Notes under the pieces: generated by a model
What the model was told of the DNA's origin: nothing
Seen by the model: the letters and a program-made list of their open reading frames with translations, nothing else
The model's database searches: none
Made by a program: the position numbers and the translations under genes
In this document: one piece after another, positions 6,573 to 7,174 of the stretch
Layout: each line of letters starts with the position of its first letter
How positions within the stretch are numbered: the first letter of the stretch is position 1
From: a virus
Lineage: Duplodnaviria > Heunggongvirae > Uroviricota > Caudoviricetes
Virus record (IMG/VR): IMGVR_UViG_3300028453_000023
Direction: 5' to 3' (one strand)
Length of the DNA: 7,174 nucleotides

Positions 6573-6899
6573 TCAGGGTGCAGAAGGACTAAAGATAAAC
6601 GTTTTCTTCACGCCTTTACGCGGCCTGTCCTTCTCAAATCGCCATTTTGCCATCGCCTTTACAACCTGCTCATCAAACAGATGGTGCGGCTCTGAACGGA
6701 TAAACTCAATTCGGGTGACAGTACCATCAGCACCAATATCAAACTTCACATCAACCCGTCCCTTTATATAATTTGCCGCTGCATAGGCCGGATATTGTGG
6801 TAATGCCTTAACCAACTGTCGGGGCATATCTGTTTTATGTTGCGTACAGCCCATAACCAGAGAAGACAACAAAATAATTAACGGAAGATTTCTTTTCAT
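6573..6899 (-). CDS. Lipoprotein consisting of a TonB C-terminal-domain-like module (about 108 aa); start may instead be the ATG at 6905 or the GTG at 6914
   Basis: Signal peptide with lipobox (MKRNLPLIILLSSLVMGC). The mature part (LPQYPAYAAANYIKGRVDVKFDIGADGTVTRIEFIRSEPHHLFDEQVVKAMAKWRFE) follows the TonB C-terminal-domain pattern (PQYPA ... G.V.VKFD ... DG.V ... AM..WR.E). GGGA lies 6 nt upstream of the ATG at 6897-6899. AT-rich codon usage, unlike the phage module. Confidence 0.7.
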   Translation of the reverse strand: MKRNLPLIILLSSLVMGCTQHKTDMPRQLVKALPQYPAYAAANYIKGRVDVKFDIGADGTVTRIEFIRSEPHHLFDEQVVKAMAKWRFEKDRPRKGVKKTFIFSPSAP

Positions 6900-6919
6900 T
6901 TTCATTCCCGGCACAGATA

Positions 6920-6936
6920 AGAATAAGTCTTATTCT
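6920..6936. promoter_or_regulatory. 17-bp palindrome AGAATAAG-T-CTTATTCT just upstream of the lipoprotein gene start; candidate operator
   Basis: Seen directly: perfect 8-bp arms around a single central base, 20-37 nt upstream of the lipoprotein start codon. Confidence 0.3.
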
Positions 6937-7174
6937 AACAATGCCACCCTGTCGGTCATCAATCCTCTGCTTAATGGCAACGACAATTATCCGACTTAAA
7001 TCACAAATCAGACACATGACATAACAGAGCTTGCGAGGTAACACATCGTCCGGTTTCTTCCACCATCGCACCGGACCAGCGACCATGAGGGGACAACGCC
7101 GCGCTCCGTTAACGCGGTAAACCCCGGTGTGTATCGTTTTTGATTATCCCCGCACACTCGCGCAGAGGAGTCTC

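Follow-up and report, generated by a model that had tools for sequence, protein, structure and literature searches.

A lipoprotein with an isolated TonB C-terminal domain in the late region of an Escherichia coli lambdoid prophage: a candidate TonB decoy

Introduction

Positions 6573-6899 (minus strand) of the IMG/VR virus record IMGVR_UViG_3300028453_000023 (Caudoviricetes), the whole 7,174-nucleotide (nt) stretch of which was analysed and is referred to below as the window, encode a small predicted lipoprotein in which a signal peptide is followed almost directly by a domain resembling the C-terminal domain (CTD) of TonB. The question raised by such a gene is what role a TonB domain, detached from the remainder of TonB and predicted to be anchored in the outer membrane (OM), could serve for a prophage and its host. 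An earlier note, made from the sequence alone, had suggested that the protein might compete with host TonB and thereby exclude TonB-dependent phages or colicins. The description of the feature given in that note proved correct, and the functional idea, which is reasonable and partly supported, is amended here to accommodate chromosomal members of the family and their apparent regulation by iron.

The gene and its lipoprotein product

The coding region comprises the following features.

6573-6899, minus strand: TonB-CTD lipoprotein gene, a complete open reading frame (ORF) of 108 codons plus stop, named 'TonB family protein' in RefSeq
6905-6909, minus strand: Shine-Dalgarno-like GGGAA, 5 nt before the ATG at 6899 and kept in loci L081 and L082 (L numbers denote the loci compared)
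6846-6899, minus strand: lipoprotein signal peptide (residues 1-17) plus Cys18, the predicted site of lipidation, read directly from the sequence
6825-6845, minus strand: short tether (residues 19-25, TQHKTDM) that joins the folded domain to the lipid anchor, delimited by the TonB alignment, which starts at P26
6585-6824, minus strand: TonB CTD, residues 26-105, equivalent to E. coli TonB 153-232 by profile, alignment and model

The ORF is genuine at these coordinates, and its frame and start are the same as those given by RefSeq; alternative in-frame starts lie upstream of the ATG at 6899, at 6905 (ATG) and 6914 (GTG). The translation, which begins MKRNLPL and ends SPSAP, consists of MKRNLPLIILLSSLVMGC, TQHKTDM and PRQLVKALPQYPAYAAANYIKGRVDVKFDIGADGTVTRIEFIRSEPHHLFDEQVVKAMAKWRFEKDRPRKGVKKTFIFSPSAP in succession. 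A basic pair (K2/R3) and an 11-residue hydrophobic core lead into L-V-M-G-C18, with T19 at position +2, an arrangement that satisfies a PROSITE PS51257-type lipobox rule and that upholds the lipoprotein signal, VMGC lipobox and +2 threonine described in the earlier note. The threonine, in place of the Asp that serves as a Lol avoidance signal, predicts sorting of the 91-residue mature protein to the OM.

Identity of the C-terminal domain

Scores above the curated cut-offs were obtained with both profiles of the domain, Pfam PF03544 (TonB_C) matching residues 36-103 with 56 bits (cut-off 24.6; E = 5.5e-15) and TIGR01352 giving 56.5 bits against a cut-off of 27.1. The best sequence matches found by phmmer in the PDB were the CTDs of E. 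coli and Salmonella TonB (E about 1e-16, residues 26-106); the match to 1u07, the E. coli TonB CTD, covered residues 28-106 (E = 4.7e-16), and identity to the enterobacterial TonB CTD was 37-41%. An AlphaFold2 (AF2) model of the protein, with predicted local distance difference test (pLDDT) values above 95 across residues 26-105, was compared with the PDB by Foldseek and superimposed on 1u07 with a root-mean-square deviation (rmsd) of 1.2 Å, on FhuA-bound TonB (2grx_C) with 1.1 Å, and on BtuB-bound TonB (2gsk_B) with 1.0 Å and a template-modelling (TM) score of 0.92, the overall ranges for TonB CTDs being 1.0-1.3 Å and 0.88-0.92. Profile search and superposition, the checks that the earlier note had proposed, together with the phmmer matches and the lipobox thereby bear out its central claim of an isolated TonB CTD placed behind a lipoprotein signal.

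When TonB residues were mapped through the phmmer alignment, with numbers counted from the TonB C-terminus, the hallmarks Y163, F180, G186, F202 and W213 were found to be kept, as were P161 and P164 of the YP motif, the conserved aromatics in the window protein being F53, F75, W86 and F88. Substitutions were recorded at Y215 (Phe), R158 (Lys), R166 (Tyr) and Q160, the last replaced by Leu, the change known from tonB suppressors of TonB-box mutants. Strand beta3 (residues 97-104, TonB 224-231) was modelled by AF2 as a strand.

TonB homology begins at P26 (equivalent to TonB P153), with seven residues between it and Cys18, and neither the transmembrane helix nor the proline-rich spacer of TonB is present in the sequence, as the earlier note had also stated. 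Because this defining N-terminal anchor and spacer are absent, the protein is not a TonB energy transducer; the equivalog model for full-length TonB (PRK10819) gave at best 73 bits against a cut-off of 315, and was matched only at model positions 157-240.

Distribution and selection in E. coli

The gene was found in 1616 of 5426 complete E. coli genomes (~30%), with one to four copies in each, and all but one of the resultant 1785 gene places were chromosomal. Two alleles were distinguished, the window type in 415 genomes and a second type in 1201, with ~73.5% nucleotide and 71% protein identity between them; the second is that of phage 21, where its depositors named it 'TonB C-terminal domain protein', and is also present in the uropathogenic E. 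coli (UPEC) strain CFT073. An older annotation reads 'partial tonB-like membrane protein ... CP-933N'. Comparison of the window and phage-21 alleles gave a synonymous divergence (dS) of about 1.5, which is saturated, a nonsynonymous divergence (dN) of 0.19 and a dN/dS of 0.12, and the gene was intact (at least 80% covered) in 1612 of the 1616 carrier genomes (>99%). Taken together, the low dN/dS and the retention of intact copies indicate a gene under purifying selection as opposed to a remnant.

Phage 21 (L131 8968-12417) carries iss/bor, the TonB-CTD lipoprotein gene and the Fe/Mn ABC importer sitABCD together, and the same three cargo loci recur in the icd-integrated prophage of CFT073 (L132 17708-21151; L129 4227-4520), in which sitA is frameshifted. 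An iron-related cargo theme is possible, as is an offset by the TonB-independent sitABCD of any cost imposed by a decoy; the co-carriage fits a cost offset or a general iron/virulence cargo theme alike. In phage JLK-2012, which has the window-type allele, tciA/tciB lie between Q and the lysis genes (L198 23804-24396) and bear annotations of tellurite resistance and of 'inhibition of cell division or resistance to colicin'; they may represent a second item of envelope- or colicin-related cargo.

Relatives in other Enterobacterales

An exhaustive HMMER search returned short relatives of 105-135 residues aligning from residue 1, and a scan of species-representative genomes located full-length members in Raoultella, Klebsiella, Serratia, Erwinia, Pantoea and Pseudescherichia. 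The window protein is consequently one of a family of TonB-CTD lipoproteins of about 100 residues carried on both prophages and chromosomes of Enterobacterales, for which NCBIfam holds no specific model. The PS51257-type rule was satisfied by 19 of 21 family members, the lipobox Cys was invariant in the family alignment (A3), the +2 residue of the relatives was S, T, A or V and never Asp, and the spacing from Cys to the PxYP motif was 15-23 residues family-wide and 15-19 in most.

Prophage-borne relatives occupy recognisable late regions. In Klebsiella phage ST13-OXA48phi12.4 the order is holin, lysozyme, the homologue (40% identity), HNH, TerS and TerL, an arrangement repeated in 40 further IMG/VR prophage contigs, and in a Serratia montpellierensis prophage it is Mom, lysozyme, homologue and TerS. 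Chromosomal homologues lie between lacZ/lacI and a DUF1440 gene in Klebsiella sp. I138, among genes for an SLT transglycosylase, an FAA hydrolase, a CxxCxxCC protein and dsbB-nhaB in Serratia grimesii, and next to araA or panE in Erwinia; no genes for TonB-dependent transporters or iron uptake were found beside the chromosomal relatives in the Klebsiella, Raoultella, Serratia and Erwinia loci examined. The phage link proposed in the earlier note therefore holds for the E. coli copies, which are prophage-borne, but not for these Klebsiella, Raoultella, Serratia and Erwinia relatives, which are ordinary chromosomal genes; that the gene might be a conserved chromosomal one unrelated to the prophage, named in that note as an outcome that would tell against it, is partly the case for the family and not for its E. 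coli members.

In Klebsiella and Raoultella the DUF1440 (YagU-like) membrane-protein gene immediately follows the chromosomal homologue (L085 8749-9312; L086 and L087 ~8727-9298), and Klebsiella prophages have a copy about 61% identical that precedes the homologue by ~3 kb (L128 2277-2903; L142-L156). The two genes may travel together, or the loci regarded as chromosomal may be prophage remnants.

Promoter and Fur boxes

Comparison across the family of the 130 nt upstream of the start codon identified two elements in the window.

6932-6940, minus strand: extended -10 element TGTTAGAAT, from promoter scan and family comparison
6916-6936, unstranded: operator-like element, in which a palindrome (6920-6936) overlaps a degenerate Fur-box match (6916-6934)

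The extended -10 is conserved family-wide as TGnTA(G/A)(T/A)AT at a constant distance from the start codon, examples being TGTTAGTAT in L133, TGATAATAT in L085, TGATAGTAT in L089 and TGTCAGAAT in phage 21. In the promoter scans the -35 of the window allele was weak, and no -35/-10 promoter common to both E. coli alleles was found in the scan of phage 21, the extended -10 alone being shared. A 45-nt promoter-proximal stretch was identical in diverged window-type alleles (L082) that differ further upstream. No intrinsic terminator was found after the ORF or between the gene and its neighbours.

Fur boxes were scored as matches out of 19 to the consensus GATAATGATAATCATTATC, and significance was assessed by shuffling the 120 nt upstream 2000 times with dinucleotide content preserved. 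In the majority of members outside E. coli a match, mostly of 14-17/19, follows or overlaps the extended -10, and in most of these loci it is the single best on both strands of the whole ~16-kb locus. Serratia grimesii scored 17/19; L089, L092, L095 and L141 scored 16/19; and L084-L088 and L133-L140 scored 15/19, with the Klebsiella-phage type at 12-14/19. A perfect 7-1-7 Fur motif, TGATAATTATTATCA, is held by L084, L089 and L133-L140, and a one-mismatch version (TGAGAAT...) by L085-L088. The distance to the start codon was 7-47 nt (L084-L090, L092, L095 and L123), the matches of L133-L141 lay at about 5966-5984, and the observed score was reached by 0 to 8 of the 2000 shuffles for L084-L086, L089, L090, L092, L095 and L123. 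Strong matches were not confined to chromosomal genes, and included the prophage-borne copies of L092 and L133-L141.

The E. coli alleles differ from this pattern. The best score in the window was 13/19, at the position of the relatives' strong boxes and 17 nt before the ATG, but was reached by 113 of the 2000 shuffles (p about 0.06), and in the phage-21 allele, with 10/19, a Fur box is absent. The element in the window also contains a perfect palindrome, AGAATAAG-N-CTTATTCT, the second arm of which is missing from the phage-21 allele. An operator for a phage repressor was considered as an identity for the palindrome and rejected, no second copy with up to 3 mismatches being found in the 30.5 kb of JLK-2012, cI-cro included. 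To judge from these upstream sequences, Fur repression and a promoter of its own most likely characterised the ancestral gene of the family; the Klebsiella and Serratia prophage copies appear to retain predicted Fur control, and the window allele would have kept the promoter with an operator that is degenerate or altered. The strong boxes of the relatives point to a role linked to iron starvation rather than a purely anti-phage one.

Within the ORF itself, an antisense sigma-70-like site (6745-6772, plus strand; TTCACA-16 nt-TATAAT, 11/12) coincides with the codons for AANYIKG, and a counterpart is found at the same place in the phage-21 allele (L002 5161-5134; TTAACC-16-TATAAT with TG). It could be a spurious AT-rich signal or give rise to an antisense transcript.

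Prophage setting

The window corresponds to the late region of a lambdoid/Shiga toxin (Stx)-type prophage of E. coli and shares 99.6% identity with strain 2011C-3911. The order in 2011C-3911 is holin, lysozyme, antirepressor, Rz, Rha, Gp49, the TonB-CTD gene, YlcI (on the opposite strand) and HNH, followed by TerS, TerL, a protease-capsid fusion and portal. The corresponding features of the window are listed below.

6396-7048, minus strand: accessory cassette (promoter, ORF and 177-bp tail), 653 bp, 43.6% GC
6241-6441, plus strand: YlcI/YnfO (DUF3950) family gene, the convergent neighbour, which marks the downstream backbone
5834-6199, minus strand: HNH gene, beyond YlcI
4982-5545, minus strand: TerS gene, beyond HNH
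7049-7174, minus strand: start of a conserved lambdoid backbone block of ~190 nt, normally located after Rz, outside the cassette

The earlier note had placed the gene in an AT-rich segment adjoining a packaging module and had likened it to a moron, and on all three counts the wider comparison agrees: GC content is 43.6% in the cassette as against 56.8% in the rest of the window; YlcI, HNH, TerS and TerL follow the gene; and phage BP-4795 has at the same site, in place of the 653-bp cassette, 246 bp of unrelated sequence between flanks that are 91-95% identical. Since the gene was present in 15 phage records and the upstream backbone block in 398, the cassette is accessory, and constitutes self-contained prophage cargo (a moron) in the lambdoid late region. 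Its orientation was the same in all 80 IMG/VR loci examined that have the window-type allele, and wherever flanks were present (some short contigs lack them) it lay between the lysis genes and YlcI/HNH/TerS. The commonest arrangement, in 41 of the 80 loci tabulated, has the gene directly after Rz; in the remainder Rha, Gp49 or another spanin gene intervenes, or the upstream flank is cut off.

The ~190-nt backbone block continues past the end of the window and corresponds to L001 13705-13895 (minus strand), where it is mostly unannotated. It is conserved at 77-99% in the 398 lambdoid/Stx phage records, short-tailed Stx2a phages included, and is present with or without the TonB-like gene. A search of 5500-7174 for an upstream structured RNA or riboswitch gave no Rfam match, and the predicted fold of the block was no more stable than those of shuffled sequences (z = -0.16). 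Small ORFs with a common 'RWWKK' peptide overlap the block (6835-7086 in the window; CPT_21_72 in phage 21), and JLK-2012 gp71 possibly carries the same peptide.

Elsewhere in the window, 100 N occupy 4439-4538 within the terminase large-subunit gene; relative to the near-identical region of 2011C-3911 the window is ~500-660 nt short, from which it follows that sequence is masked or missing. The major capsid gene (1819-3756, minus strand; 645 residues) has relatives annotated as fusions of prohead protease and major head protein, which is ordinary for this phage group.

A possible decoy of TonB

The reading tentatively favoured here, which falls somewhat short of probable, is that the protein acts as an OM decoy competing with TonB. 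A lipid-anchored TonB CTD on a tether of about seven residues would be held at the inner leaflet of the OM, and its domain would sit at the periplasmic OM face where the TonB boxes of transporters emerge, as would the N-terminal TonB boxes of group-B colicins. In 2GSK and 2GRX, beta3 of the TonB CTD pairs with the transporter TonB box directly under the barrel, and the window domain may capture TonB boxes through similar beta-strand pairing. Since the protein has no coupling to ExbB/ExbD, no energy would be transmitted, and the domain would be a non-productive competitor of TonB. The outcome would be reduced entry of T1/phi80-type phages, of colicins B, D, Ia and M, and of microcins that need energised TonB, and the gene would then serve a lysogenic conversion or exclusion function. 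The overlap of a Fur box with the promoter in most relatives suggests that such a decoy would be produced under iron starvation, with the transporters de-repressed and exposure of the cell at its greatest. We infer the localisation, TonB-box binding and phenotype of the window allele's product, and its regulation from that of the relatives. The idea in its fullest form, that of a Fur-switched, OM-tethered and unenergised TonB mimic conferring broad, receptor-independent resistance to TonB-dependent phages and bacteriocins under iron starvation, is a little more doubtful.

Two precedents make the proposal plausible. TonB-dependent import of iron is inhibited when a periplasmic domain of TonB is overexpressed (Howard et al. 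2001, cited through PMC9841981), and the idea of a decoy or exclusion factor would agree with this known inhibition of transport by periplasmic TonB fragments. Furthermore, the lipoprotein Llp of phage T5 resides at the inner leaflet of the OM and blocks FhuA from the periplasmic side (bioRxiv 10.64898/2026.03.26.714494), so that what the earlier note had stated of FhuA-blocking phage lipoproteins is upheld for Llp.

A number of considerations weigh against the proposal. A constitutive antagonist of TonB should be costly, TonB being needed for iron uptake and for UPEC virulence, yet ~30% of E. coli genomes carry the gene, that of CFT073 among them. Induction by iron starvation of an inhibitor of uptake looks paradoxical unless its targets are the TonB boxes of colicins or phages. 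The window has a weak Fur box (13/19) and the commonest E. coli allele, that of phage-21 type, has none, which together with the late-operon co-orientation and the failure to find a terminator implies that expression in E. coli may be mainly late. At the level of structure, the residue equivalent to TonB R166, reported to contact FhuA in 2GRX, is Tyr in the window protein. Fragments of TonB with no more than about 86 residues, when isolated, dimerise and are poor inhibitors in vitro; the mature window protein has 91. Transporters greatly outnumber TonB (PMC9841981), for which reason a decoy directed at transporters would need a high copy number. No functional study of the protein was found in the literature, a 2024 review of superinfection exclusion mentions Cor alone for FhuA, and PADLOC gave no match at E ≤ 0.01 for the window protein or for proteins P0009 and P0037.

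Alternative explanations

The strongest of the competing explanations, although we consider it rather unlikely, is that the protein is an iron-starvation accessory of the TonB system, a Fur-controlled OM partner that tunes or assists TonB-dependent uptake and is carried by prophages as fitness or virulence cargo in the manner of iss and sitABCD. It might occupy the TonB boxes of transporters that are idle, keep or place the C-terminus of TonB at the OM, or modulate signalling. Such a role accords with the strong Fur boxes that precede most non-E. coli members, with the many chromosomal relatives of Klebsiella, Raoultella, Serratia and Erwinia to which no phage genes are linked, and with the co-travel with iss/bor and sitABCD in phage 21 and CFT073; the high prevalence in pathogenic E. 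coli likewise argues against a costly inhibitor. By way of contrast, the relatives do not lie beside transporter genes, the Fur box has been lost from the commonest E. coli allele, and we know of no mechanism by which an unenergised TonB domain would aid transport. The sole experimental precedent (cited through PMC9841981) is one of inhibition.

A role late in the lytic cycle is decidedly unlikely. The protein would in that event either protect progeny or the infected cell by Llp/Cor-like inactivation of a TonB-dependent receptor carried by lysing cells and their debris, or aid the OM step of lysis. The late-operon orientation, the position directly after Rz in 41 of 80 loci and the lack of a terminator between the gene and its neighbours are all consistent with this, and Llp provides a precedent (bioRxiv 10.64898/2026.03.26.714494). 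The protein also matched phrog_1267 over its full length (E = 1.9e-42), which is labelled 'Rz-like spanin' in category lysis; that label is probably wrong, given that phage 21 has spanins of its own and the protein a globular TonB fold with no C-terminal transmembrane segment, and it looks like an annotation error spread through the position of the gene beside Rz. Phage 21 has separately annotated i- and o-spanins in addition to the gene; BP-4795 lyses without it; the protein is neither a u-spanin, for want of a C-terminal transmembrane segment, nor of the short proline-rich Rz1 type; and the cassette has a conserved promoter of its own, with a Fur box in relatives, some of which are chromosomal and devoid of any lysis context. 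Moreover, TonB-dependent phages are not known to adsorb irreversibly to de-energised debris, so that for them protection of progeny would be unneeded.

Sequestration of TonB itself, through a heterodimer formed with the TonB CTD by strand exchange, would titrate the scarce energiser and be stoichiometrically cheaper than titrating transporters. TonB is limiting relative to transporters (PMC9841981), and the fold is near-identical to that of TonB CTD fragments which crystallise as dimers, 1u07 being the top match; the dimeric CTD forms seen in crystals are, however, not found in vivo according to the title of PMC3005593, and the explanation is improbable.

That the gene is an inert remnant, a captured and functionless tonB fragment as the old wording 'partial tonB-like' and the 37-41% identity to the enterobacterial TonB CTD might suggest, is scarcely credible in view of the dN/dS of 0.12 with saturated synonymous divergence between alleles, the new lipoprotein signal peptide conserved family-wide, the conserved promoter and operator, and the intact state of the gene in more than 99% of carriers.

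Significance

As an object the gene is already known, having been annotated for two decades and being present in ~30% of complete E. coli genomes, and to that extent the novelty suggested by the earlier note is reduced; the mechanism would nevertheless be new, and no description was found in the literature of the lipoprotein nature of the product, the family, its Fur-box architecture or its function. Should it prove to be a decoy, the protein would represent the first natural Ton-system antagonist that works by mimicry of the energiser's receptor-binding domain, and exclusion by such mimicry, instead of by receptor blocking, would be a new variant of exclusion by phage OM lipoproteins. It would add to the receptor-specific Llp and Cor a generic mechanism applicable to all TonB-box clients, present in roughly a third of E. 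coli, Shiga toxin-producing E. coli (STEC) and UPEC included. Differences between strains in sensitivity to group-B colicins, microcins, sideromycin and siderophore-conjugate antibiotics and TonB-dependent therapeutic phages could be affected, as could the effects of STEC and UPEC prophages on iron physiology, given the co-travel with iss and sitABCD in CFT073 and phage 21. If the protein assists uptake instead, it would be an unrecognised component of a heavily studied system.

Comparison with known systems

The closest likeness is to the TonB CTD itself (1U07, 2GSK chain B and 2GRX chain C), with which the window protein shares the fold, the YP motif, the aromatics and beta3. Unlike TonB, it has neither the N-terminal transmembrane helix nor the segment that couples to ExbBD, and its predicted lipid anchor would attach it to the opposite membrane. 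In being a TonB domain uncoupled from the inner membrane it resembles the engineered periplasmic TonB fragments of Howard, Herrmann, Stratilo & Braun (2001, J Bacteriol 183:5885). Whereas these were artificial, soluble and overexpressed, the window protein is natural, predicted to be lipid-anchored, and restricted to TonB residues ~153-235. The engineered fragments were reportedly longer, extending from residue 122 or earlier to 239.

With the Rz/Rz1 spanins it has in common a predicted OM lipoprotein encoded beside lysis genes, but its fold is the globular one of TonB_C and its gene is neither paired with nor embedded in an i-spanin gene. An identity as a spanin was accordingly rejected, there being no C-terminal hydrophobic segment, a globular TonB_C fold, and separate i- and o-spanins in phage 21. 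The Bor/Iss morons of lambda and its relatives offer a closer parallel in setting: they occupy the same niche between the lysis cassette and cos as OM lipoprotein cargo of deviant GC, and in phage 21 and CFT073 bor/iss is adjacent to the TonB-CTD gene. The domain is nonetheless different from Bor, and the gene is oriented opposite to bor, with the late genes.

In function the nearest comparison would be with Llp of T5 and the lambdoid Cor proteins (phi80, N15 and HK022), likewise small phage OM lipoproteins (a status predicted for the window protein), which act on a TonB-dependent transporter from the periplasmic side and thereby exclude phages. The window protein is unrelated to them in sequence and fold: no entries for Llp, Cor or the FhuA:Llp complex were among the best 50 of 153 Foldseek matches in the PDB, which include every match at E ≤ 0.001, none of the five PHROG matches bears a Cor or Llp label, and the viral structures of BFVD gave no match at E ≤ 0.001. 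Llp acts allosterically on a single receptor, FhuA, whereas a TonB mimic of the kind proposed here would act generically, on TonB boxes.

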